Shown in pieces: positions 2,950-51,323 of a DNA stretch of 64,000 bases. Position 1 is the first letter of the stretch; the number at the start of each line of letters is the position of its first letter. The notes below the pieces were generated by a model. The model saw only the letters and a program-made list of their open reading frames with translations. It searched no databases and was not told the origin of the DNA. The DNA lies in NCBI RefSeq assembly GCF_041248615.1, contig NZ_CP158426.1; one strand, written 5' to 3'. This stretch comes from Escherichia coli (GTDB lineage Bacteria > Pseudomonadota > Gammaproteobacteria > Enterobacterales > Enterobacteriaceae). A program made the position numbers and the translations under genes.

Positions 2950-4266
2950 ATGGCCGTCAATCTTACTGAAACAGCCATCCGAGCATTGAAAGCAAAAAAG
3001 ACATCGTTCTATGTCTGGAGCAACAGCTCTCAACGTGGCACTGGACGACTTGGTGTCAAAGTTCAGCCTTCTGGCAGCAAGATTTTCTATTTCCGCTATT
3101 ACGTGGAAAAAGGGAAAAAAGAAAGATTCATTCAATTGGGTATATGGCCTGAGATGAAACTGGCCACAGCGAATGAACTGGCAAAAAAGTATGGTGCCTG
3201 GCTCATTGAAGGAAAGGCTCCCCAGGCAGAACTGGAACGACAACAGTTTGCAGAACAGCAGCGGATACAACTCCATCAATCACAGGGCTCATTTGAAGCA
3301 TTGATTCATGGTTATGTTAACAAAATGAAAATTGATAATAAGAGGACATGGCAGGATGTTCTGAAACGCCTTGAAAATGAATGCTATACAGTGATCCCCC
3401 GTGAAACTAAAGCTAAAGATGTGACTTCCGGACAGATTAAACATATCCTGGCCGGGATCATTCAGCGCGGTGCTGTGGTTCACTCTAACCGGATCCGTTC
3501 TTACCTGATGGCTGCATTTAACTATGGACTGAAAGCAGATAACGATCCGATGAACACAAGTGTAGGGATTACTTTTGGGCTGGAGGCAAATCCGGTGTCA
3601 GTGATACCGAAACAGTCATCTGCTGAAAAAGTCGGTGATACCTGGCTGACACTTGAAGAGTTGCGTTTTCTAATGGAACATTTTGCTGAAGCAACCAACG
3701 TTGGATTATTGATGCAACATTTGATCCGATTCTGTATCTATACCGGAGGGCAACGTCCTTTCGAAATGATCGCCAGTCAGTGGTGTGATGTTGATTTTCA
3801 ACAAAAAACGCTGCTGGTGACTGCTGATGTCTCTAAAAATAAACGAGAGCATTTGATACCGTTGACTGAATCAGCATTACAGGAATTATCCTGTGTGCAG
3901 GAGTTAACAAAAGAAAAATCCAGCCCTTACATTTTTCCACTTTCGACTAATGGTAAGCGTCCGGTTCGTACGGACAGTCTGGCTCGCGCTATCATGTATT
4001 TCCGGGCTTTTAATCCTGACTTTAAAATTTTTACAGCACGTGACTTACGTCGGACCTGTAAAACGTTAATGGGAGAAGCTGGGATCAGTAAGGAAATCCG
4101 CGATCGTATTCAAAATCATGCGTTGAACGATGTCAGTTCAAAACATTATGATCGATACGATTATTTGCCAGAAAAACGCAGAGCACTTGAGATCTGGGAG
4201 GACCGGGTTAATAACTATCAACAGCAAACAGGCAATAATGTTGTCAATCTGTTTGGCAGAAGGTGA
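2950..4266 (+). CDS. P4-like tyrosine integrase (N-terminal arm-binding domain plus C-terminal catalytic domain)
   Basis: 438-aa ORF; N-terminus MAVNLTETAIRALKAKK...; C-terminal R...HxxR...Y catalytic residues (DLRRT, NHAL, SKHYDRYDY). Confidence 0.9.
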   Translation: MAVNLTETAIRALKAKKTSFYVWSNSSQRGTGRLGVKVQPSGSKIFYFRYYVEKGKKERFIQLGIWPEMKLATANELAKKYGAWLIEGKAPQAELERQQFAEQQRIQLHQSQGSFEALIHGYVNKMKIDNKRTWQDVLKRLENECYTVIPRETKAKDVTSGQIKHILAGIIQRGAVVHSNRIRSYLMAAFNYGLKADNDPMNTSVGITFGLEANPVSVIPKQSSAEKVGDTWLTLEELRFLMEHFAEATNVGLLMQHLIRFCIYTGGQRPFEMIASQWCDVDFQQKTLLVTADVSKNKREHLIPLTESALQELSCVQELTKEKSSPYIFPLSTNGKRPVRTDSLARAIMYFRAFNPDFKIFTARDLRRTCKTLMGEAGISKEIRDRIQNHALNDVSSKHYDRYDYLPEKRRALEIWEDRVNNYQQQTGNNVVNLFGRR

Positions 4267-11062: not shown

Positions 11063-12151
11063 TGGATTTGCCCCTATATTTCCAGACACCTGTTATCACT
11101 TAACCCATTACTGGCCCGCTGCCGTAGATATTCCCGTGGCGAGCGATAACCCAGTGCACTATGCGGATGCCATTCGTTATAATGCTCGAACGCCTCTGCA
11201 AGGTTCTTTGCTGCCGTTAACCCGTCTGGTTTGGGCATGATACTGATGTAATCACGCTTTATCGTTTTCACGAAGCTCTCTGCTATGCCGTTACTCTCCG
11301 GACTCCGCACCGCCGTGTTCTTCGGTTCAAGTCCCAGCATCCGGGCGAACTGGCGTGTTTCATTAGCCCGGTAGCATGAACCATTATCCGTCAGCCACTC
11401 CACTGGAGATGTCGGAAGCTCGCTGCCGAAGCGGCGTTCCACCGCTCCCAGCATGACGTCCTGTACTGTTTCACTGTCGAAGCCGCCCGTAGTGACCGCC
11501 CAGTGCAGTGCCTCACGGTCACAGCAGTCCAGCGCGAACGTGACCCCCAGTTTTTCTCCGTTATCACAGCGGAACTCGAACCCGTCAGAGCACCATCGTT
11601 GATTGCTTTCTTTCACGGCCACTTTGCCAGTATGTGCCCGTTTCGATGGCGGTACAGCGGTTTTTCGCTCAAGCAACAGCGCATTCTGGCGCATGATCCG
11701 GTAAACACGTTTGGCATTGATAGCAGGCATACCATCAAGTTCGGCCTGTCTGCGAAGCAGCGCCCATACCCGACGATAACCATACGTGGGCAGCTCTCCG
11801 ATAACATGGTGTATACGGAGAAGCACATCCGTATCATCTGAGTGACGGCTGCGGCGACCATCTTTCCAGTCATCGGTTCGTCTGAGAATGACGTGCAACT
11901 GCGCACGCGACACCCGGAGACAACGGCTGACTAAGCTTACTCCCCATCCCCGGGCAACAAGGGAGACCGTCATTCCCGGTTCAAAGCTCTGCTGAACAAT
12001 AGCGATCTTTTCCTGTGTAGTACGCCGTCTGCGTTTCTCCGGCCCTAAGACATCAATCATCTGTTCTCCAATGACTAGTCTAGAAACTAGTATTAAGACT
12101 ATCACTTATTTAAGTGATATTGATTGTCTGGAGATTCAGGGGGCCAGTCTA
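11063..12151 (-). mobile_element. IS2 deletion derivative (about 1.09 kb instead of 1.33 kb)
   Basis: IS2 terminal sequences at both ends (revcomp TAGACTGGCCCCCTGAATCTCCAGACA at 12122..12151; TGGATTTGCCCCTATATTTCCAGACA at 11063); internal deletion of about 240 bp. Confidence 0.85.
11074..12105 (-). CDS. IS2 transposase, in-frame InsC(N-terminal 36 aa)-InsD fusion created by the internal deletion
   Basis: 343-aa ORF: [36 protein letters not shown] joined directly to [18 protein letters not shown]... (InsD). Confidence 0.7.
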
Positions 12152-12485
12152 TATATCAATTAATCATTAGTTTAAAAGCTTGTTCAACTGCATACATCAT
12201 TAGCGTTTAAGCCAGTGAACAGGAAGTTTACTGGCTTAATTACAGTAATATAGTGTATCGCTATGCTCACTGAGTCTTAGATCTCCACCGTCGGTCTAAT
12301 ATTCGCACTCCTGCTAACAACCGGTAATCAAATCGTCCTCCGGTATTGAAAGTTAATACACAAATCAGGATGATGGAGGCTCATACTGGTACAGCGCGAC
12401 CACTTATGCAGGCGTCTCTGTCAGGTTTGTTGCCCGGATCACCCGCATCAGGGACAGGGCTGTTCAGTTATCCGCAGGAGAAAAT

Positions 12486-13496
12486 ATGTCACTCAAGGCT
12501 ATCGCCGCCGAACTCGGGATCTCTGTCACCACAGTCAGCCGGGCGCTTGGCGGATTTTCGGACGTTTCCGCTTCGACCCGTGCACGTGTAGAAGCGGAAG
12601 CTCGGCGTCGTGGTTATCGCCCGAATACCCTGGCAAGACGTCTCAAAACCGGTAAAACCGATGCGGTCGGCCTGGTCTTCCCTGAACATGCTGTACTGTT
12701 CAGCAGTAGTGTGTTTGTGGATATGGTCAGTTGTATCAGCCGGGAACTGGCCCGCCATGATATTGACTTACTGCTGATAGCCGATGATGAACGGGCTGAC
12801 AGCCACAGCTATATGCGTCTGGTCGAAAGCCGCCGGGTTGATGCCCTTATCGTGGCGCACACGATGGATAATGACCCGCGTCTTACACACCTGCAGGAGG
12901 CCGGTATTCCGTTTCTGGCACTCGGTCAGGTGCCGTCCGGTCTTCCCTGTGCCTGGTTTGACTTTGATAACCATGCAGGAACCTGGCAGGCCACACAGCA
13001 CCTGATTGCCCTGGGCCATCAGCGAATTGCCCTGCTGAGTGAGGACAACTCCCGTGCCTATGTCACTGCACGACGTCAGGGATGGCGCGATGCCCTGAGT
13101 GAACATGGTCTGCCTGAGACCTGGCTACGCCGGGTCTCTCCCACCCGACGCTCAGGTTTCCAGGCAGTGACTGAGTTAATGTCACTTCCGCTTCCCCCGA
13201 CGGCCATTATTACCGACAGTGACCTGATCGGTGATGGCGCGGCCATGTCGCTGCAGTTATCCGGTCATCTGTCCGGAGAGGATGCCGTCTCTCTTGTGGT
13301 TTATGATGGTCTGCCGCAGGACAGTATTATTGAACAGGATGTGGCTGCAGTTCTTCAGTCAACACGACATCGCGTCGGTCGTCAGATTGCCGACATGATA
13401 CGCCAGCTGGTCACGAATGTTTCACCTGAAATGCTACAAGTACTCTGGCAGCCGGAATTTCATCCTGGCAAGACAACGCTTGCTCCCTCCGCCTGA
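12486..13496 (+). CDS. rafR: LacI-family repressor of the raffinose operon
   Basis: 336 aa; N-terminal HTH MSLKAIAAELGISVTTVSRAL; immediately upstream of alpha-galactosidase/permease/invertase genes. Confidence 0.8.
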   Translation: MSLKAIAAELGISVTTVSRALGGFSDVSASTRARVEAEARRRGYRPNTLARRLKTGKTDAVGLVFPEHAVLFSSSVFVDMVSCISRELARHDIDLLLIADDERADSHSYMRLVESRRVDALIVAHTMDNDPRLTHLQEAGIPFLALGQVPSGLPCAWFDFDNHAGTWQATQHLIALGHQRIALLSEDNSRAYVTARRQGWRDALSEHGLPETWLRRVSPTRRSGFQAVTELMSLPLPPTAIITDSDLIGDGAAMSLQLSGHLSGEDAVSLVVYDGLPQDSIIEQDVAAVLQSTRHRVGRQIADMIRQLVTNVSPEMLQVLWQPEFHPGKTTLAPSA

Positions 13497-13518
13497 TTTT
13501 TAATCCCGCTCACAAATT

Positions 13519-13551
13519 CGAATCGTTTCGGTTGCTATCCGAAACGATTCG
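13519..13551. promoter_or_regulatory. Paired operator-like inverted repeat upstream of rafA (CGAATCGTTTCGG - 7 bp - CCGAAACGATTCG)
   Basis: Perfect 13-bp inverted repeat; each arm is itself a near-palindrome of LacI-family operator type. Confidence 0.45.
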
Positions 13552-13589
13552 GATCAACAGTAAGGCATACCCGAAAACGGAGATGTCTT

Positions 13590-15716
13590 ATGGAACCGAT
13601 GTACCGCAGGCTGACCAGTCCCCACTCAGACCTGATTATTAAAACCCACCCGTATGCAGAGATTGTCTGGTGGGGATCCACCCTGAAACACTTTTCACCG
13701 GATGACTGTATCAGCCTGGAAAGGCCGGTTGCGAATGGTCGTCTGGATACCGACACCCCACTGACGCTGATGGCCGAAAACGGCGCGGGACTTTTTGGCT
13801 CGCCGGGGCTGGAGGGACACCGCAACGGGCTGGATGCGTCCCCTGTGTTCCGTACCATCAGCGTGGTACAGGCCGGAGAATCACTCACCCTGACCAGTGA
13901 GGATGCAGTGGCGGGTCTGCGCATGGTCAGTGAACTGGTGCTGACATCGTCCGGTGTGCTGAAGATGCGTCATGCCCTGACGAACCTCCGTGAAGGGGAC
14001 TGGCAGGTGAACCGCTTCGCCATCACGCTCCCTGTGGCTGAAAGGGCAGAGGAAGTCATGGCCTTCCACGGACGCTGGACTCGTGAGTTTCAGCCGCACA
14101 GGGTCCGTCTCACACATGACGGTTTTGTGCTGGAGAACCGCCGGGGCCGCACGTCCCATGAGCATTTTCCGGCACTGATTGCCGGTGCCCCCGGTTTCTC
14201 AGAACAGCAGGGCGAGGTGTGGGCCGTACATCTGGGCTGGAGTGGCAACCATCGCATGAAATGTGAGGTCAAAACTGACGGACGGCGTTACCTCCAGGCG
14301 GAAGCACTGTGGATGCCCGGAGAAAAAGCCCTGAAGAAGGATGAGACCGTGTACACGCCGTGGCTGTACGCCAGCTATTCCCCGGAGGGGCTCAATGGTA
14401 TGAGTCAGCAGTACCACCGTTTTCTGCGCGATGAAATCATCCGTTTTCCTGAGCAGAAACCCCGTCCGGTGCACCTCAATACCTGGGAAGGTATTTATTT
14501 TGACCACGACCCGAACTACATCATGCAGATGGCCGGACGTGCGGCAGCGCTTGGCGTTGAACGTTTCATTATCGACGACGGCTGGTTTAAGGGACGCAAT
14601 GATGACCATGCGGCTCTGGGCGACTGGTATCTGGATGAACAGAAGTATCCGGACGGACTGATGCCGGTGATTAACCATGTGAAATCACTCGGCATGGAGT
14701 TCGGTATCTGGGTGGAACCGGAAATGATTAACCCGGACTCTGACCTCTTTCGCCGCCATCCTGACTGGGTACTGTCAATGCCGGGGTACACACAACCAAC
14801 CGGGAGACATCAGTATGTTCTCAACCTGAACATTCCTGAGGCCTTTGCTTACATTTATGAACGCTGTTTATGGCTGCTGGGCGAACACCCAGTTGACTAT
14901 GTGAAATGGGACATGAACCGCGAGCTGGTCCAGGCCGGGCATGAAGGTCGGGCGGCGGCGGACGCGCAGACCCGTCAGTTTTACCGGCTGCTGGATCTCC
15001 TGCGCGAACGTTTTCCCCGTGTTGAGTTTGAGTCCTGCGCTTCCGGCGGTGGACGTATCGACTTTGAGGTTCTGACCCGCACGCACCGCTTCTGGGCTTC
15101 TGACAACAATGACGCCCTGGAGCGCTGCACCATACAGCGTGGCATGAGTTACTTTTTCCCGCCGGAGGTTATGGGGGCACACATCGGTCATCATCGCTGC
15201 CATGCCACCTTCCGGCAGCACAGCATTGCCTTTCGCGGTCTGACGGCCCTGTTCGGTCATATGGGACTGGAGCTGGATCCGGTAACGGCCGGAGAAGAGG
15301 AATCCGCCGGTTACCGCCGCTATGCCTCGCTCTACAAAGAATGGCGGCAGCTTATCCACACGGGCACCCTATGGCGGGTGGATATGCCGGATGCGGCGAC
15401 ACAGGTGCAGGGGGTGGTCAGCCCGGATCAGTCGCAGGCGCTCTTCCTGGTGAGCCAGCTTGCCATGCCGGATCACACCCTGCCGGGTGCTCTACGTTTT
15501 CCGGGGCTGGCACCACAGGCCCGTTACCGGCTTCGTGTTGTTGACCATCCGGATATTCAGCTGGTCGGTGAAGGCGGGCATACCATGCGCAGGCTGCCCG
15601 GCTGGATGAACCAGACCTCCGACATCAGTGGGGAATGGCTGGCGCAGGCCGGTATTCAGCTTCCCGTACTGGATCCGGAAAGCGCCATGCTGATTGCCCT
15701 TGAACGTTTGGCATAA
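13590..15716 (+). CDS. rafA: Alpha-galactosidase (GH36)
   Basis: 708 aa; GH36 melibiase-type catalytic region (DDGWF...WVEPEM); raf operon context. Confidence 0.85.
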   Translation: MEPMYRRLTSPHSDLIIKTHPYAEIVWWGSTLKHFSPDDCISLERPVANGRLDTDTPLTLMAENGAGLFGSPGLEGHRNGLDASPVFRTISVVQAGESLTLTSEDAVAGLRMVSELVLTSSGVLKMRHALTNLREGDWQVNRFAITLPVAERAEEVMAFHGRWTREFQPHRVRLTHDGFVLENRRGRTSHEHFPALIAGAPGFSEQQGEVWAVHLGWSGNHRMKCEVKTDGRRYLQAEALWMPGEKALKKDETVYTPWLYASYSPEGLNGMSQQYHRFLRDEIIRFPEQKPRPVHLNTWEGIYFDHDPNYIMQMAGRAAALGVERFIIDDGWFKGRNDDHAALGDWYLDEQKYPDGLMPVINHVKSLGMEFGIWVEPEMINPDSDLFRRHPDWVLSMPGYTQPTGRHQYVLNLNIPEAFAYIYERCLWLLGEHPVDYVKWDMNRELVQAGHEGRAAADAQTRQFYRLLDLLRERFPRVEFESCASGGGRIDFEVLTRTHRFWASDNNDALERCTIQRGMSYFFPPEVMGAHIGHHRCHATFRQHSIAFRGLTALFGHMGLELDPVTAGEEESAGYRRYASLYKEWRQLIHTGTLWRVDMPDAATQVQGVVSPDQSQALFLVSQLAMPDHTLPGALRFPGLAPQARYRLRVVDHPDIQLVGEGGHTMRRLPGWMNQTSDISGEWLAQAGIQLPVLDPESAMLIALERLA

Positions 15717-15755
15717 AAGGACCGGAGCCGGTCACGGCTCCCTGCACTCAGTCCC

Positions 15756-17048
15756 GTGAGGATAACAATAATGAATACTGTCAGTACTCATAAAAACCCC
15801 GATTTCTGGATATTTGGTCTGTTCTTTTTTCTCTACTTTTTCATCATGGCAACCTGTTTCCCGTTTCTGCCCGTCTGGCTGTCAGACATTGTGGGGCTGA
15901 GTAAAACGGATACCGGGATTGTTTTTTCATGCCTCTCCCTGTTTGCCATCAGCTTCCAGCCGCTGCTGGGGGTCATCTCAGACCGTCTTGGCCTGAAAAA
16001 ACACCTGATGTGGATCATCAGCCTGCTGCTGGTCCTGTTTGCACCGTTCTTTCTGTACGTTTTTGCGCCGCTGCTGCGGTTCAACATCTGGGCCGGAGCA
16101 CTGAGCGGCGGGATTTTTATCGGCTTCGTTTTTTCTGCGGGAGCCGGTGCCATCGAAGCCTATATTGAACGTGTCAGCCGCAGCAGCGGATTTGAATACG
16201 GTAAGGCCCGGATGTTCGGCTGTCTGGGCTGGGCGCTGTGTGCCACCACGGCAGGGCTGCTTTTCAACGTGGATCCGTCCCTGGTATTCTGGATGGGGTC
16301 CGGCTGCGCATTGCTGCTGGTCCTTCTGGTGGCGCTGGCGCGTCCCGGAACCAGTCAGACAGCGATGGTCATGAATGCGCTGGGTGCCAACTCGCCCGTG
16401 ATTTCCGCCGGAATGGTGTTCAGTCTGTTTCGTATGCGTCAGATGTGGATGTTCGTGCTTTACATGATTGGGGTGGCCTGCGTCTATGACGTGTTTGACC
16501 AGCAGTTTGCCACGTTCTTCCGTGCATTTTTTGACACGCCGCAGGCGGGGATCCGGGCATTTGGTTTTGCCACCACGGCTGGCGAGATTTGCAATGCCAT
16601 CATCATGTTCTGCTCCCCCTGGATAATCAACCGCATTGGTGCCAAAAACACACTGCTTGTCGCGGGTCTGATTATGACCATCCGCATCACAGGGTCGGCC
16701 TTTGCCACCACGGCTACTGAAGTGGTGATCCTGAAAATGCTGCATGCCCTTGAAGTCCCATTCCTGCTGGTTGGTGCGTTCAAGTATATCACCGGCGTGT
16801 TTGATACCCGGCTGTCGGCCACCATTTATCTGATTGGCTTTCAGTTCTCCAAACAACTGGCGGCGATATTCCTCTCAACCTTTGCAGGTCACCTGTATGA
16901 CCGCATGGGGTTCCAGAACACCTATCTGGTTCTGGGCGGTATTGTCCTTGCGGTCACCGTGTTATCGGCTTTCACCCTGAGCAGTACCCGTAAAACGGCT
17001 GCCCCGTCAGCAGAAACCGCTACAGCACAGACGGAGGTTCGCTTATGA
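15756..17048 (+). CDS. rafB: Raffinose permease, LacY-family oligosaccharide:H+ symporter (true start possibly ATG 15771)
   Basis: 430 aa, LacY-like (FWIFGLFFFLYFFIMATCFPFLPVWL...). Confidence 0.85.
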   Translation: MRITIMNTVSTHKNPDFWIFGLFFFLYFFIMATCFPFLPVWLSDIVGLSKTDTGIVFSCLSLFAISFQPLLGVISDRLGLKKHLMWIISLLLVLFAPFFLYVFAPLLRFNIWAGALSGGIFIGFVFSAGAGAIEAYIERVSRSSGFEYGKARMFGCLGWALCATTAGLLFNVDPSLVFWMGSGCALLLVLLVALARPGTSQTAMVMNALGANSPVISAGMVFSLFRMRQMWMFVLYMIGVACVYDVFDQQFATFFRAFFDTPQAGIRAFGFATTAGEICNAIIMFCSPWIINRIGAKNTLLVAGLIMTIRITGSAFATTATEVVILKMLHALEVPFLLVGAFKYITGVFDTRLSATIYLIGFQFSKQLAAIFLSTFAGHLYDRMGFQNTYLVLGGIVLAVTVLSAFTLSSTRKTAAPSAETATAQTEVRL

Positions 17049-18475
17049 AACAGCGTCTTGCCTCTGCACAGGTTGCACTTGATACACTCCGCGCCCGTCG
17101 TGGTGATACCTGGTACCCGGTTTTTCATCTGGCTCCACCTGCCGGATGGATGAATGATCCGAACGGGCTTATTTATTTCAGCGGTCGCTATCACGCATTC
17201 TTTCAGCACCATCCGGCAAGTGAACATCAGGGGCCGATGCACTGGGGACATGCCACCAGTCCGGACATGCTGCACTGGCAGCATGAGCCGGTTGCGCTGG
17301 CACCCGGTGATGAATATGACCGGGATGGCTGTTTTTCCGGCAGCGCAGTGGACGACAACGGCGTGCTGTCGCTTATCTACACCGGTCATCTCTGTCTGGA
17401 GGATCGGGGGGATGACAGCATCATCCGCGAAGTCCAGTGTCTGGCAACCAGCCGTGACGGCATTCACTTTGAGAAACAGGGCTGCGTGCTGACGCCACCG
17501 GAAGGCATCATGCATTTCCGTGACCCGAAGGTCTGGCGGGAAGGGGGATACTGGTGGATGGTTATCGGCGCGCGGGATACCTCTGACACCGGTCAGGTGC
17601 TGCTGTATCGCGGCACATCCCTGCGGGACTGGCGCCAGGAACGGGTTCTAGCGCAGTCGGCAGCCGGAGAAAGCTATATGTGGGAATGTCCGGACTTTTT
17701 CCGCTGTGGCGACCATCACTGGCTGATGTTCTCCCCGCAGGGGATGACGCCCGGCGGATACCGGTTCCGCAACCGCTTTCAGAGCGGAGTTTTACCGGGT
17801 CACTGGCAGCCGGGGGCCGCCTTTGCCCTGAGCGGGGCATTTGAAGAACTGGATCACGGTCATGATTTTTATGCCCCGCAGTCCCTGGTCGCGGAGGACG
17901 GACGGCGCATCATCATGGCCTGGATGAATATGTGGGACTCCCCGATGCCTACAAAGCGTGAGGCCTGGGCCGGATGTCTGACCCTGCCGAGGGAACTTTT
18001 TGAACGCCATGGTCGTCTGTGTCAGCGTCCGGTTCGCGAAGCCGAATCCCTTCGCGGGACGTGCCAGCCGTTACACCCTGTAAGGCTCAGTGGCACGCAG
18101 TTGCTGGCTGAGGACGCACAGGCCGTGGAACTGGTGCTGACGTGGCATACCCTCGACAGTCAGGCAGAGCATTACGGCATCCACCTGGGAGACGGGCTCC
18201 GGCTGTATGTGGATAACCAGGCAGGACGGCTGGTGCTTTGGCGTCACTACCCGGATGAGGGGCTGGACGGTTACCGCAGTATCGCGCTGCCTGGCGCAGA
18301 ATATCTGACGCTACGGGTTTTCCTGGACCGTTCATCGGTGGAAGTGTTCGTTAACGATGGCGATGCCACCCTGTCCAGCCGTATTTACCCGCAGCCCGGA
18401 ACCCGCCGGTTGTCGCTATATGCAGCTCACGGCGAGGCTGTGCTGACGGACGGCTCACTGTGGACGCTGGCCTGA
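17045..18475 (+). CDS. rafD: Sucrose/raffinose hydrolase (GH32 invertase)
   Basis: 476 aa; GH32 N-terminal motif WMNDPNGL; overlaps rafB stop by 4 bp. Confidence 0.85.
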   Translation: MKQRLASAQVALDTLRARRGDTWYPVFHLAPPAGWMNDPNGLIYFSGRYHAFFQHHPASEHQGPMHWGHATSPDMLHWQHEPVALAPGDEYDRDGCFSGSAVDDNGVLSLIYTGHLCLEDRGDDSIIREVQCLATSRDGIHFEKQGCVLTPPEGIMHFRDPKVWREGGYWWMVIGARDTSDTGQVLLYRGTSLRDWRQERVLAQSAAGESYMWECPDFFRCGDHHWLMFSPQGMTPGGYRFRNRFQSGVLPGHWQPGAAFALSGAFEELDHGHDFYAPQSLVAEDGRRIIMAWMNMWDSPMPTKREAWAGCLTLPRELFERHGRLCQRPVREAESLRGTCQPLHPVRLSGTQLLAEDAQAVELVLTWHTLDSQAEHYGIHLGDGLRLYVDNQAGRLVLWRHYPDEGLDGYRSIALPGAEYLTLRVFLDRSSVEVFVNDGDATLSSRIYPQPGTRRLSLYAAHGEAVLTDGSLWTLA

Positions 18476-18486
18476 AATAATTCCAC

Positions 18487-18512
18487 TGCCGTCGGTGACG
18501 GCAGTACTTTCG
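18487..18512 (+). terminator. Hairpin downstream of rafD
   Basis: ctgccgtc ggtg acggcag followed by a T-containing tract. Confidence 0.4.
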
Positions 18513-18523
18513 GTTCACCCGTA

Positions 18524-19054
18524 ATGAAGGAAAGCACAATGGGATTACTGGGCAGGATTAAACAACTGATAAGTGAAAATGAGAAACCGGCGGAAGTCAC
18601 CCGCGTGATGGCACCGCTGTCCGGTGAAATTGTCCCTCTGGACACGGTTCCGGATGCTGTGTTTGCCGGGAAAATAGTGGGGGATGGTATTGCTATCCGT
18701 CCTTCCGGCGGCGATACCTTGATGGCTCCTGTCAGCGGCACTATCGGTAAAATACTGGAGACAAACCACGCGTTTTCCATCCGCACCGACAGTGGCACTG
18801 AACTGTTCGTGCACTTCGGTATTAACACAGTTGACCTCAGGGGAGAGGGTTTCCGGCGTATTGCCCAGGAAGGCCAGCTGATCAGCACCGGTGACCCCGT
18901 CATCGGGTTTGACCTTGCGTTACTTCAGCAGAAAGCACAGTCCACGCTGACACCGGTGATTGTGGCGGACTCTGACCGTGTCCAGGAGATAACCCTGTTC
19001 TCCGGCCCGGTCATCGCCGGAGAAACACCGGTTTTTGATATCAGCAGCCAGTAA
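18524..19054 (+). CDS. PTS EIIA-Glc (Crr-like) domain protein
   Basis: 176 aa with EIIA-Glc-type sequence (DAVFAGKIVGDGIAI...FVHFGINTVDL). Confidence 0.6.
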   Translation: MKESTMGLLGRIKQLISENEKPAEVTRVMAPLSGEIVPLDTVPDAVFAGKIVGDGIAIRPSGGDTLMAPVSGTIGKILETNHAFSIRTDSGTELFVHFGINTVDLRGEGFRRIAQEGQLISTGDPVIGFDLALLQQKAQSTLTPVIVADSDRVQEITLFSGPVIAGETPVFDISSQ

Positions 19055-19324
19055 GCGCCATGAGTGACAATATCGCCAGCGGGCAGCTGGTATCAGGGAA
19101 AGCCGCACATCTGGCCTGGTGCGGGCTGGTAGCCCTGCATCTGGCCCGCCGGGATGGCCGGATTGCGTCAAAAATCCAGGAAAACCTGTTTCTAAACCGC
19201 TGGCGGAGCACAGCACTGAAACAGCACCGTTTTCCCCGCACATATCAGAGCCCTGCAGAGTGAAAGCGGGGCGAAAGATATCCGCAGCAGGCTGGAGTAT
19301 CTGTGGCAGGCCTGCTCTGGTGAT

Positions 19325-19636
19325 GTGTCGGTACAGACTGACCTGTTCCGCCTGACATTCGCCCTGGAAACCATCAGGGAGCAGGGCTGGTGCTGGCGGA
19401 TACTGAGCGACCGGAAATGGGAGGGGCGTAATGTCGTGGTTCCGAACGGGGATGCCGGCAGCTTTTATCTTTCCCGCTCACGTCTTGAGGCGGCATTTGA
19501 TTATCAGGGGAGGTTGCTGCATCCCCTGACCGGCGATGTGTCTGCCCTCGCTGCCCTGCTCCGGAATGCGGGTTGGTATCCAATTCCAGCCGGAACCACG
19601 GATATGGCGATGTTTGAGCTGTCTGTCATCCGCTGA
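19325..19636 (+). CDS. Hypothetical 103-aa protein
   Basis: ORF only; no motif recognised. Confidence 0.3.
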   Translation: MSVQTDLFRLTFALETIREQGWCWRILSDRKWEGRNVVVPNGDAGSFYLSRSRLEAAFDYQGRLLHPLTGDVSALAALLRNAGWYPIPAGTTDMAMFELSVIR

Positions 19637-19665
19637 ATATGACTGATGAAAATCATGGAGTATGA

Positions 19666-20592
19666 ATGAGTACAGTAAAAGTATGGGGTCTCGGTGATGC
19701 CGTGGTGGATTTATTACCGGAGAAGCCGGGCACGCTGTTGCAGTGCCCTGGTGGTGCGCCTGCCAATGTTGCCGTGGGCGTGGCCCGACTGGGGGGCCTG
19801 AGCGGGTTTGTCGGGTGTGTGGGGGATGACCCTTTCGGGCGTTTTATGCGCAAAACCCTGGCTGATGAGGGTGTGGACACGGCGTATATGCATACCGACC
19901 CTCTGTACCGGACTTCCACAGTGGTGGTGTCGCTGGTGCCGGGTGGTGAACGAACCTTCACATTTATGGTGCGCCCTTCGGCAGACCTTTTCCTTACCCC
20001 TGATGATTTACCGCCCTTTCGTGCCGGTGAATGGCTGCATACCTGCTCCAATGCCCTGAGTGCAGAGCCCTGCCGCAGCGCCACGTTTCAGGCCATGGAG
20101 AACATCCGGCAGGCTGGCGGCAGGGTCAGCTTTGACCCCAACATCCGGACTGACCTGTGGCAGAGCACATCGCAACTGCGTGAGTGTCTGCACCGGGCGC
20201 TCATGCTGGCGGATGTGGCAAAGGTATCGGAAGAGGAACTGTTCTTTATCAGCGGTGAACAGGATGTCCGGAAGGGAACCGATGTTCTGGCATCACATTA
20301 TCCCCTGGCACTGCTGCTGGTAACCCAAGGAAAGGATGGCGTGATGGCTCGCTGGCAGGGAAAAAACCTGTACTTCCCGGCAACACCGGTGGTGAGTGTG
20401 GACACGACCGGTGCCGGTGACGCCTTCGTGGCAGGTCTGCTGGCAGCGCTGGCGGCAGAGGGGATGCCCTCCGGTGAGCAGGCACTCGCATCCGTCATCG
20501 AACAGGCCCAGCGCTGTGGTGCGCTTGCCACGACAGCAAAAGGTGCCATGACAGCGTTACCCCGTCGCCAGGATTTACTGAAACACCCCTGA
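19666..20592 (+). CDS. Fructokinase (PfkB/ribokinase family, ScrK/CscK-like)
   Basis: 308 aa; N-terminal VWGLGDAVVDLLPE and C-terminal DTTGAGDAF PfkB signature. Confidence 0.8.
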   Translation: MSTVKVWGLGDAVVDLLPEKPGTLLQCPGGAPANVAVGVARLGGLSGFVGCVGDDPFGRFMRKTLADEGVDTAYMHTDPLYRTSTVVVSLVPGGERTFTFMVRPSADLFLTPDDLPPFRAGEWLHTCSNALSAEPCRSATFQAMENIRQAGGRVSFDPNIRTDLWQSTSQLRECLHRALMLADVAKVSEEELFFISGEQDVRKGTDVLASHYPLALLLVTQGKDGVMARWQGKNLYFPATPVVSVDTTGAGDAFVAGLLAALAAEGMPSGEQALASVIEQAQRCGALATTAKGAMTALPRRQDLLKHP

Positions 20593-20640
20593 CCGTTTCC
20601 TGCCCGTAACCGTTGTGCACGTCATTTTTGTTGCGGGTGA

Positions 20641-22188
<1,548 letters not shown>

Positions 22189-22193
22189 ACACT

Positions 22194-22219
22194 AACGCTC
22201 CCGGTGTACCGGGAGCGTT
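22194..22219 (+). terminator. Perfect hairpin 6 bp after the glycoporin stop
   Basis: aacgctcccgg tgta ccgggagcgtt. Confidence 0.4.
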
Positions 22220-22424
22220 GCCGGTCATTGTCCCGTAAATGAAAGCGTTGTTCATCAATAGGAATTTAAACCCCAAAAAGATTAAAAAAACACCTGAAAA
22301 AGGGCGCTTTCTCAGCATCGTCACACATGCCATAACTTCGACGTCATCAATTAAATGGACTTCATTGATTGATACCGGGTATCGTGACGGGAGCCTGTTT
22401 AGGATTCTGTGTAAATGCCTTTTC

Positions 22425-23204
22425 TCAGAAGTGACCGTCCAGGCGGTCACCGAACTCGATAATAAAGCGGCTCATTGCCATTCGCCAGTCCTTCAACGGC
22501 ATCGTCCATTTCTGGGACGCAGACTGGATTGCCAGCCACACCACTTTTTTCACCGAGTCGTCTGTCGGGAACACTTTACGCTTTTTGATCGCATGGCGGA
22601 TCACGCTGTTTAGCGACTCGATGGCATTCGTCGTATAGATCACTTTGCGGATGTCCGTTGGATAAGCGAAGAACGTGGCAAGATTCGGCCAGTTAGCCTG
22701 CCAGCTTCGGCTTATCTGAGGATAGCGACTGTCCCAGGCCGCAGCGAACGCTTCCAGTGCCTGCTGACCTGCCTCTTCCGTGGGAGCTTGATAAATCGCT
22801 TTCAGGTCGCGAGTGACGGCCTTGTAGTCCTTCCATGACACGAAGCGCAGGCTGTTGCGCACCATATGCACGATGCATAACTGGATGCGGGCCTTCGGAT
22901 ATACTGTGTTGATGGCATCCGGGAAGCCTTTCAGGCCATCCACACAGGCGATGAGGATATCGTTCAGACCGCGGTTTTTCAGTTCAGTCAGCACATTGAG
23001 CCAGAACTTCGCCCCTTCATTTTCGGCCAGCCACATACCCAGCAGTTCCTTCTGACCTTCGATATTGATGCCCAGTGCCAGGAACACCGATTTGTTGATG
23101 ACGCGACTGTCCTGCCGAACTTTCAGGACGATACAGTCAAGATAAACAATGGGGTAAACAGCATCCAGTGGTCTGTTTTGCCATTCTACAACCTGCTCCA
23201 TCAC
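22425..23204 (-). pseudogene. IS256-family transposase, N-terminally truncated (about 140 aa missing) by insertion of the IS629-like element
   Basis: 259-aa ORF matching the C-terminal two thirds of IS256-family transposases; upstream end abuts the IS629-like inverted repeat at about 23218. Confidence 0.7.
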
Positions 23205-23271: not shown

Positions 23272-23598
23272 ATGACTAAAAATACTCGTTTTTCCCCCGA
23301 AGTCCGTCAGAGGGCGATTCGTATGGTTCTGGAAAGTCAGGGCGAATATGACTCACAGTGGGCGGCAATTTGTTCCATTGCCCCAAAGATTGGCTGTACA
23401 CCGGAGACTCTGCGTGTCTGGGTGCGCCAGCATGAGCGGGATACCGGAGGCGGTGATGGCGGGCTCACCACCGCTGAACGTCAGCGTCTGAAAGAGCTGG
23501 AACGTGAAAATCGTGAACTGCGCCGCAGTAACGATATCCTTCGCCAGGCTTCCGCTTATTTTGCGAAGGTGGAGTTCGACCGCCTCTGGAAAAAGTGA
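23272..23598 (+). CDS. IS629-like OrfA (HTH transposase subunit)
   Basis: 108 aa [21 protein letters not shown]...; leucine-zipper region; overlaps orfB in the -1 frame. Confidence 0.8.
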
Positions 23599-24012
23599 TG
23601 CCACTGCTGGATAAGCTGCGTAAGCTGTACGGGGTCGGACCGGTATGCAGTGAACTACATATTGCCCCGTCAACGTATTACCACTGTCAGCAACAGCGAC
23701 ATCATCCTGATAAACGCAGTGCCCGTGCGCAGCGCGATGACTGGCTGAAGAAAGAGATACTGCGCGTATACGATGGGAATCATCAGGTATACGGTGTGCG
23801 TAAAGTCTGGCGTCAGTTGTTACGGGAAGGAATCAGGGTAGCCAGATGTACAGTGGCGCGCCTCATGGCGGTTATGGGACTTGCCGGTGTTCTCCGGGGT
23901 AAAAAGGTCCGCACTACCGTCAGCCGGAAAGCCGTTGCCGCAGGCGACCGCGTAAACCGTCAGTTTGTGGCAGAACGTCCTGACCAGTTGTGGGTGGCTG
24001 ATTTTACTTACG
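23595..24012 (+). pseudogene. IS629-like OrfB, interrupted after ...QLWVADFTY by a group II intron
   Basis: Transposase homology ends at 24012; intron consensus GTGTG follows at 24013. Confidence 0.7.
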
Positions 24013-26769
<2,757 letters not shown>

Positions 26770-51122: not shown

Positions 51123-51198
51123 ATGGTGGCCCCTGTTGGGTTTGAACCAACGACCAAGCGATTATGAGTCGCCTGCTCTAACCACTGAGCTAAGGGGC
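51123..51198 (-). tRNA. ileX: tRNA-Ile2 (anticodon CAU, lysidine-modified), attL side of the island
   Basis: 76-nt cloverleaf GGCCCCTTAGCTCAGTGGTTAGAGCAGGCGACTCATAATCGCTTGGTCGTTGGTTCAAACCCAACAGGGGCCACCA with encoded CCA; K-12 position between mug and yqjH. Confidence 0.9.
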
Positions 51199-51323
51199 CA
51201 TGGTAGCGGATTATAAAGTAACTCCGTGTCGCAATCCAGCCATTACCGCGCGCCTGCTGTTTTTATAAACAATGTATTTTCAATCCGTTATACTTTTCCT
51301 GGTGATGTTAGAAAGGAGTAAAT

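Follow-up and report, generated by a model that had tools for sequence, protein, structure and literature searches.

Among described systems, the pRSD2-type raf operon is the nearest relative of the locus that we report here, a discrete block of sugar genes, 10,107 bp long, at positions 12152–22258 of a 64,000-nt stretch of Escherichia coli DNA (contig NZ_CP158426.1; the whole stretch is referred to below as the window). In this block a paralogue of crr, the gene for the glucose-specific EIIA protein (EIIA-Glc, or Crr) of the phosphotransferase system (PTS), is found behind rafD. The pRSD2-type operon and the window share rafR, rafA, rafB and rafD in the same order (79–88% protein identity and 79.6% DNA identity), a double RafR operator and an overlap of rafD with rafB, but the pRSD2-type operon is without the crr paralogue, DUF2913 and scrK, and its RafY gene (Porin_8 family) comes directly after rafD, whereas the window has a porin of the ScrY type (LamB family). 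The clade of the Crr paralogue has only two other known homes, the raf clusters of Citrobacter braakii and Klebsiella michiganensis. The proteins of these clusters are 60–78% identical to those of the window and the GC content of their crr genes is 41% (vs 55% in the window); they have RafY, not ScrY, they contain neither scrK nor DUF2913, and their rafD and crr genes lie behind a RafR-type operator promoter of their own.

Two sucrose systems have also to be compared. The scrKYABR regulons (pUR400/Klebsiella type; we compared those of pCC32 and of E. coli IncF plasmids) share with the window the scrK–scrY pair, one palindrome in the spacer between the two genes and a hairpin after scrY, but scrA (encoding an EIIBC protein), scrB, scrR, the second operator palindrome and the native region upstream of scrK are all missing from the window. 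The csc clusters (cscB-cscK-cscA-cscR) likewise combine a LacY-family permease with a GH32 invertase and a fructokinase, and the nearest relatives of RafD in species-representative genomes are found there; however, an alpha-galactosidase, a porin of this type and a crr-like gene are all absent from them (80 loci), and their permeases are only 34–47% identical to RafB. Finally, the housekeeping Crr (encoded by ptsHI-crr) resembles the paralogue in fold family, approximate length, core residues and amphipathic N-terminus, but the two are only 57–65% identical (the Vibrio and E. coli Crr proteins are ∼85% identical to each other), and the paralogue is encoded in a catabolic operon for a non-PTS sugar, behind a RafR-type operator, and not with ptsHI.

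To our knowledge, inducer exclusion by EIIA-Glc, a textbook mechanism, is always described as the action of one housekeeping Crr on many targets. Here we propose, with a probability of roughly 45%, that the paralogue is an operon-encoded EIIA-Glc under the control of RafR, which would couple the raffinose system to the state of the PTS, probably through gating of the permease RafB. The gene in question is the following:

18539–19054, plus strand: raf-linked crr paralogue, encoding a full-length EIIA-Glc of 171 amino acids (aa) (Pfam, NCBIfam and PDB matches)

Three open reading frames (ORFs) between rafD and the porin gene were listed in the initial annotation of this DNA (18524–19054, 176 aa; 19325–19636, 103 aa; 19666–20592, 308 aa), and all three exist as listed. 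The first is the longest ORF of the EIIA gene; its likely start is the ATG at 18539, which yields a Crr-like N-terminus (MGLL...), is preceded by a GAAGGA Shine–Dalgarno sequence 8 nt upstream and is also the start given by RefSeq. The protein can be assigned to Pfam family PTS_EIIA_1 (PF00358; E 1.9e-42, 144.4 bits with a cut-off of 27.2; profile positions 2–126 of 127) and to the NCBIfam equivalog NF006962 ('PTS glucose transporter subunit IIA'; 235.7 bits, cut-off 212), and residues 1–168 match EIIA-Glc chains in PDB (E 1e-63). It shares 59% identity with E. coli Crr and 58% with Vibrio Crr (same matrix). The gene is not part of the ptsH-ptsI-crr operon; it follows rafD in the raf cluster of a genomic island, and to judge by its sequence it is a paralogue, not an orthologue, of the housekeeping crr. 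We also considered that it might be a fragment of an EIIABC gene; this was ruled out by its full length, its alignment over residues 1–168 with stand-alone Crr structures and its scores, which are far under the NagE and BglF cut-offs.

The residues on which the function of Crr depends are largely retained. The equivalents of the phosphorylated active-site residues His75 (motif TNHAFS) and His90 (motif FVHFG) are invariant throughout the alignment of 21 sequences, the window protein included, as are D38, F41, I45, V46, G47, A76, S78 and F88. The initial annotation had allowed for an EIIA-like ORF that lacks the active-site His region or is truncated from an EIIABC gene; the ORF found here is a full-length EIIA with both active-site histidines conserved. 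G47, A76 and S78 are required for target inhibition. The hydrophobic contact patch is mostly kept (F41, I45, V46 and F88 as above; F71 is replaced by Leu in the window copy), and V96 varies across the 21 sequences. Going by the sequence pattern only, the N-terminal amphipathic helix (residues 1–18) retains its hydrophobic pattern (MGLLGRIKQLIS vs MGLFDKLKSLVS). Because the histidines, the contact patch, the target residues and the membrane helix have been kept, the paralogue is most likely phosphorylated by the HPr of the host and most likely acts at the membrane.

When 5.8 billion proteins were searched, none was found between 98% and ∼66% identity to the window paralogue, and two relatives of 170 aa stood out: P0079 from C. 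braakii (62–63% identical) and P0090 from K. michiganensis (60% identical). Their genes are 63–65 bp downstream of rafD and have their own Shine–Dalgarno sequence; the order is rafR-rafA-rafB-Porin_8-rafD-crr in Citrobacter, and rafD-crr followed by rafR-rafA-rafB-Porin_8 in Klebsiella, with no scr or EIIBC genes in either raf locus. A profile built from the three paralogues recovered five clusters (belonging to three lineages) at 302–338 bits, with housekeeping Crr proteins at 267 bits or less, and in a neighbour-joining tree of the three paralogues and 18 housekeeping Crr proteins the paralogues formed a clade in 200/200 bootstraps. Among 72,556 plasmids searched by tblastn the paralogue was found in this block only; the other matches were housekeeping-type crr genes (169 aa) on chromosome-sized or doubtful 'plasmid' records. 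16 positions are diagnostic of the clade, including E43G, E80K/R, D94N/S, E97D and an insertion of one residue. These alterations are at the rim, and they suggest a range of partners that has been narrowed or shifted.

The paralogue also appears to have been maintained. Its dN/dS between Citrobacter and Klebsiella is 0.13 at a dS of 1.2 (dN/dS is 0.09 for rafD), and by this estimate the gene is under purifying selection; a 99.2% identical copy from Salmonella has too few substitutions to inform the analysis. Within E. coli, 243 of 245 carrier genomes have the gene at an identity of at least 99% and a coverage of at least 80%. It was initially described as an orphan inserted between rafD and the porin gene, a description contradicted by the diverged paralogues directly after rafD in Citrobacter and Klebsiella, by their grouping in a clade of their own and by the purifying selection. 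Nor does a neutral passenger, carried inside the mobile block without benefit or harm, fit well: the pRSD2-type raf operon, which is without the gene, and one copy disrupted by an insertion sequence (IS) would agree with it, but selection has been purifying across lineages that are close to saturated at synonymous sites, the position and the Shine–Dalgarno sequence are conserved and the catalytic and contact residues are invariant, all of which make mere hitchhiking very unlikely. Since the pRSD2 type, the nearer relative, is without crr and the more distant Citrobacter/Klebsiella type (69–78% protein identity) has it, the simplest reading is that rafD-crr would be ancestral to these raf clusters and would have been lost in the pRSD2 type.

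The paralogue closes a raf module that consists of rafR, a promoter with RafR-type operators, rafA, rafB, rafD and the crr paralogue itself:

12486–13496, plus strand: rafR, repressor of the LacI family (Pfam LacI helix-turn-helix and Peripla_BP_1; 79% protein identity to pRSD2-type RafR)
13518–13531 and 13539–13552, plus strand: raf promoter with a pair of RafR-type operator palindromes, CCGAAACGTTTYGG, at a spacing of 21 bp (pattern matches and alignment)
13590–15716, plus strand: rafA, alpha-galactosidase of family GH36 (Pfam Melibiase, E 4.6e-115; 87% identity to pRSD2-type RafA)
15771–17048, plus strand: rafB, raffinose permease of the LacY family (Pfam LacY_symp, E 2.5e-205; RefSeq start at 15771, longest ORF from a GTG at 15756)
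17045–18475, plus strand: rafD, invertase of family GH32, which overlaps the stop of rafB (N and C domains of GH32 in Pfam; scrB_fam subfamily, 445 bits)
18484–18505, plus strand: GC-rich hairpin in the spacer that separates rafD from the crr-like gene, a candidate weak terminator or mRNA stabiliser (terminator-like scan)

In an alignment of four raf clusters the double palindrome is conserved in all four rafR–rafA spacers. Klebsiella has a second double RafR-type operator (again 21 bp apart) ∼260 bp upstream of rafD, and Citrobacter has a single copy with one mismatch 226 bp upstream of rafD; a pattern scan of the window detected no additional RafR operators before crr, scrK or scrY beyond those of the rafA promoter. 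In all three lineages the paralogue is thus downstream of a RafR-type operator and in the same orientation, which suggests that it is co-regulated by RafR.

What would a second EIIA-Glc do? E. coli, Citrobacter and Klebsiella all have a housekeeping crr (the matches of our search include Crr sequences under the names of E. coli and Klebsiella pneumoniae), and no EIIBC gene is adjacent to the paralogue in any of the three lineages; because of this, its role is most likely in regulation and not in transport. The absence of an EIIBC partner, which had been pointed out in the initial annotation, was borne out by a tblastn search with two ScrA proteins (E ≤ 0.01), in which the 64-kb window gave no match to ScrA-like (Glc-Scr family) EIIBC proteins. 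A functional second EIIA-Glc might instead raise PTS flux by its dosage as a phosphocarrier, through those host EIIBC proteins that have no IIA domain (PtsG, MalX, TreB and ScrA), and could then serve to recapture glucose that leaks after sucrose cleavage by RafD, or to supply a sucrose PTS encoded elsewhere in the genome. The N-terminal amphipathic helix is needed for transfer to the membrane EIIB, and its retention, together with both histidines, a score above the Crr equivalog cut-off and tight linkage to an invertase gene that produces intracellular glucose, is in keeping with such a dosage effect. However, the host already has crr, no EIIBC has been co-inherited in the three lineages or is present in the window, and the conserved rim changes, with 40% divergence from a protein that is otherwise ∼85% conserved, favour a changed set of partners over redundancy; we therefore consider dosage unlikely.

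For the regulatory role that we prefer, and that the initial annotation had offered as one of two possibilities (of the inducer-exclusion type), a target is at hand. According to Titgemeyer et al. (1994, J Bacteriol 176:543; relayed in PMC4996493), EIIA-Glc in its unphosphorylated form inhibits the RafB permease of the classical operon. RafB of the window is 57% identical to LacY, and the GAN motif of the central loop is conserved (with a single RafB from a crr-less cluster to compare, the loop offers no power to detect co-evolution with the paralogue). Induction by raffinose would lead the operon to supply the EIIA-Glc paralogue, host HPr would phosphorylate it, and in its dephosphorylated form it would gate RafB according to the state of the PTS (by inducer exclusion or autoregulation). 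Being carried in the operon, the paralogue would keep the ratio of EIIA to permease constant when a mobile and possibly multicopy raf operon is induced, and host Crr would thereby be spared titration. A stronger version, which we regard as somewhat doubtful, is that the raf-linked Crr paralogues constitute a device that has not been described before, in which the operon of a non-PTS sugar encodes an EIIA-Glc under its own repressor: a private, stoichiometric link between RafB and the PTS, whose remodelled electrostatic rim would insulate it from the other targets of host Crr.

Placement in a RafR-type operator unit and altered rim residues would also agree with an effect in the opposite direction. 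As a booster of cAMP, the phosphorylated paralogue would activate adenylate cyclase or buffer phosphoryl groups, so that cAMP-CRP remains high, host Crr remains phosphorylated, and raf expression and RafB activity persist amid other sugars; a mobile catabolic operon would presumably gain by evading the hierarchies of its host in this way. All target-binding residues are retained, however, a pattern that suits an inhibitor no less than a decoy, and we judge catabolite escape of this kind to be quite improbable.

Several observations weigh against coupling of RafB to the PTS by the paralogue. First, the gene is dispensable for raffinose use, since the pRSD2-type raf operon, which has no crr paralogue, is functional and is subject to regulation by host Crr. 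Second, D94N/S and E80K/R remove acidic residues of the rim, which we take to be contacts of basic HPr residues (from the HPr–IIAGlc NMR complex), and this loss makes the efficiency of phosphorylation uncertain. Third, the hairpin between rafD and crr could lower read-through (the 63-nt intergenic region that contains it has a fold energy of −20 kcal/mol). Fourth, the clade is tiny, with three lineages, and one natural copy is interrupted: an IS3 insertion lies inside the crr paralogue of E. coli QL57EC, a swine isolate (NZ_CP172108.1, 1640–3416). Fifth, a crr-like neighbour was found in 0 of 80 RafD/CscA-family loci from species-representative genomes (these loci are csc-type or Gram-positive, have no rafA, and none is a raf cluster), indicating that the rafD–crr linkage is raf-specific and rare. 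Last, crr is linked to rafD and not to rafB: DNA identity between Citrobacter and Klebsiella is 94% for rafRAB and 79% for rafD-crr (and 71% for rafY), so that rafD-crr behaves as a separately exchangeable module. On these comparisons, the Citrobacter and Klebsiella raf clusters have mosaic histories.

The window block is itself a mosaic. Downstream of the raf module it continues with the following features:

19060–19636, plus strand: DUF2913 pseudogene in two fragments, 19060–19263 (frame 1) and 19268–19636 (frame 2) (three-frame translation)
19666–20592, plus strand: scrK-type fructokinase of the PfkB family, 308 aa (Pfam PfkB, E 2.6e-58; NCBIfam fructokinase equivalog, 477 bits, cut-off 450)
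20640–20654, plus strand: scr-type palindrome ACTAAATCGATTTAG, a putative ScrR operator in the scrK–scrY spacer (alignment with two scr regulons)
20692–22188, plus strand: scrY-type sucrose porin with an N-terminal coiled-coil extension (Pfam LamB, E 2.1e-93, and Sugarporin_N)
22195–22258, plus strand: hairpin after scrY (22195–22218) and right end of the block (22258), where homology with a Salmonella plasmid stops

The kinase score bears out the fructokinase proposed in the initial annotation, which fits sucrose and raffinose catabolism (the RefSeq name for this kinase is 'aminoimidazole riboside kinase', a naming artefact that could mislead surveys based on annotation). A sugar porin is indeed encoded downstream, as was also proposed, but it is of the ScrY type (LamB plus Sugarporin_N) and not the classical RafY; the RafY proteins of the pRSD2-type, Citrobacter and Klebsiella loci all belong to Porin_8. 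ScrK and ScrY share 65–69% and 76–78% protein identity, respectively, with those of scrKYABR regulons, and a collinear kinase–porin pair with 68–72% DNA identity is found on many plasmids; in the two of these that were inspected, the pair leads a scrK-scrY-scrA-scrB-scrR series. At the DNA level, the resemblance to the pCC32 scr regulon ends ∼30 bp past the scrY stop, ahead of scrA; the scrK–scrY spacer (20593–20691) is ∼70 bp shorter than in scr regulons, with the second palindrome of these regulons deleted; and a gap of 29 bp separates the DUF2913 stop from scrK, whose native upstream region is absent. Neither scrB nor scrR was found in the window, where ScrB matches only rafD (37–40%) and ScrR only rafR (26–28%). 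From their sequences, the fructokinase and porin genes are scrK–scrY of a scrKYABR regulon from which scrA, scrB and scrR have gone. As the block has one scr-type palindrome and no scrR, scrY may be constitutive or under the control of a LacI-family protein of the host. In the resulting raf–scr mosaic, ScrY would replace RafY for entry through the outer membrane and ScrK would phosphorylate the fructose that RafA and RafD together free from raffinose, a coherent pathway given the family assignments and the known route.

The initial annotation suggested that a sucrose PTS had left a remnant here. For scrK–scrY this stands, by scr synteny, identity and the putative operator palindrome, but it does not extend to the EIIA gene, which occurs in raf clusters without scr genes. 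In enteric bacteria, EII-Scr of the scr regulons relies on Crr for its IIA component, the adjacent scrK–scrY pair is a true scr remnant and RafD falls in the scrB_fam subfamily, so one could picture the EIIA gene as a leftover of a scr-type operon (EIIBC, hydrolase and EIIA), without a present function among the raf genes. In Citrobacter and Klebsiella, however, the paralogues follow rafD where there are no scr genes, the DUF2913 pseudogene lies between the crr-like gene and scrK, and the gene has been kept (243/245 genomes; dN/dS 0.13 at dS 1.2) while the neighbouring DUF2913 decayed; moreover, RafD is only 37–40% identical to ScrB, compared with 83% to pRSD2-type RafD. An scr origin of the EIIA gene is thus largely refuted and, of the explanations considered, hardly credible.

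The 103-aa ORF (19325–19636), initially called an orphan, is one half of a DUF2913 pseudogene that a frameshift has split: it is part of the frame-2 C-terminal fragment, and the N-terminal partner, an ORF of 67 aa at 19060–19263, had been overlooked. The frameshift is at ∼19240–19265, and RefSeq annotates two adjacent 'DUF2913 family protein' ORFs here. Taken singly, the two fragments score 21.1 and 11.1 bits against Pfam PF11140, under the cut-off of 23. Joined across the single frameshift, they give a reconstruction of 192 aa that is 46–51% identical to intact Enterobacterales proteins of ∼200 aa (E down to 1e-48) and matches P0125 (residues 10–181 of 192, E 6e-60) and PHROG 15786 (E 2.9e-46). 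The same frameshift is carried by the Salmonella plasmid copy, and we found no intact close orthologue of this gene. Intact homologues are found in plasmid or island contexts, near genes for type VI secretion systems (T6SS), IS66, H-NS and plasmid transfer; genes for sugar use or the PTS do not adjoin them. A conserved functional pair of crr and DUF2913 was considered and ruled out, since the intact homologues have no sugar or PTS neighbours and the Citrobacter and Klebsiella loci have no DUF2913. Probably, the pseudogene is a dead gene of a mobile element that marks the seam between the two sugar modules. The C-terminus of the crr paralogue (19040–19054) reads ...FDISSQ, where its relatives end in ...RIKK, ...RIRK or ...RIKR, and the start codon of DUF2913 is 5 bp past the crr stop; together, these suggest a recombination joint that cut into the last crr codons.

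Taken as a whole, 12152–22258 is a 10.1-kb mobile mosaic of a raf module, a frameshifted DUF2913 gene and scrK–scrY. On either side it is bounded by transposable elements:

11074–12151, minus strand: IS3-family element abutting the left end of the block (ORF 11074–12105; RefSeq IS3 family transposase in an identical region)
22425–23204, minus strand: truncated IS256-family (IS1414) transposase, the right bound (ORF; RefSeq annotation of an identical region)

A 99.2% identical copy of the block is found in a different context on an IncFII plasmid of Salmonella Saintpaul (NZ_CP022492.1), with which homology begins at 12152; it is thus transferred in one piece from replicon to replicon and across genera. 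In the Salmonella copy the flanking IS3 is absent, and the neighbours are an ATP-grasp gene and GGDEF/EAL genes. Positions 18400–20700 of the window, which run from the 3' end of rafD into the start of the porin gene, are present at an identity of at least 99% in 246 of 5426 complete E. coli genomes (∼4.5%), mostly on the chromosome, and the full block (query 12400–22300) is present on nine plasmids. On one E. coli plasmid of 354 kb (NZ_MG591698.1), the block is ∼5 kb from a stand-alone gene for a 105-aa 'glucose PTS EIIB' (883–1197), whose neighbours encode a beta-galactosidase, a maltoporin and a LacI-family regulator; none of these genes is in the window.

The first 12.5 kb of the window and its tRNA/mug/rpoD end match an E. 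coli chromosome. The raf genes are on a genomic island of ∼48 kb, which starts with a tyrosine integrase gene (2950–4266) beside nfeR-nfeF and ends at a tRNA gene with a CAU anticodon (51124–51199), ahead of mug and rpoD. This tRNA was called tRNA-Met by ARAGORN, and its homologue in RefSeq is tRNA-Ile, that is, ileX. An IS3-family element at 23272–26761 of the window is split by an ORF for a group II intron reverse transcriptase/maturase (24669–26192, 507 aa, TTG start); in a related genome, ltrA has an internal stop and a pseudogene annotation. In a related strain, ECCNB12-2, the same island encodes a type I restriction–modification system, Ag43 and a cbtA/yeeU toxin–antitoxin pair.

Published accounts of this island, or of E. 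coli gene sets that fit it, name only rafRABDY, or rafABD plus rafY (PMC6392093, PMC12987596). In two genome-wide association studies, genes of the raf cluster were associated with chicken and the association was attributed to soybean raffinose in poultry feed (PMC12987596, PMC12815263); one of them describes the associated rafY as a 'sucrose porin precursor' and found hsdR associated as well (PMC12987596), and the other reports a 'plasmid-borne raf operon' as chicken-associated (PMC12815263). The porin description and hsdR of PMC12987596 fit this island, and the cluster that was scored would be either this one or a pRSD2-type raf operon. Many of the complete genomes that carry the block are of poultry origin. 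The crr paralogue and the scr origin of porin and kinase are not mentioned in PMC6392093 or PMC12987596, and the paralogue is not mentioned in PMC12815263. We found no study of the crr paralogue in the literature, in a search that covered subscription journals sparsely, so a prior description is possible.

Host Crr and the paralogue, which has kept the core but differs at the rim, offer a natural pair for dissecting the surface residues that determine partner specificity. If the proposed coupling of the raffinose system to the PTS is true, mobile catabolic modules can bring along part of the global machinery by which their hosts set the hierarchy of carbon sources.

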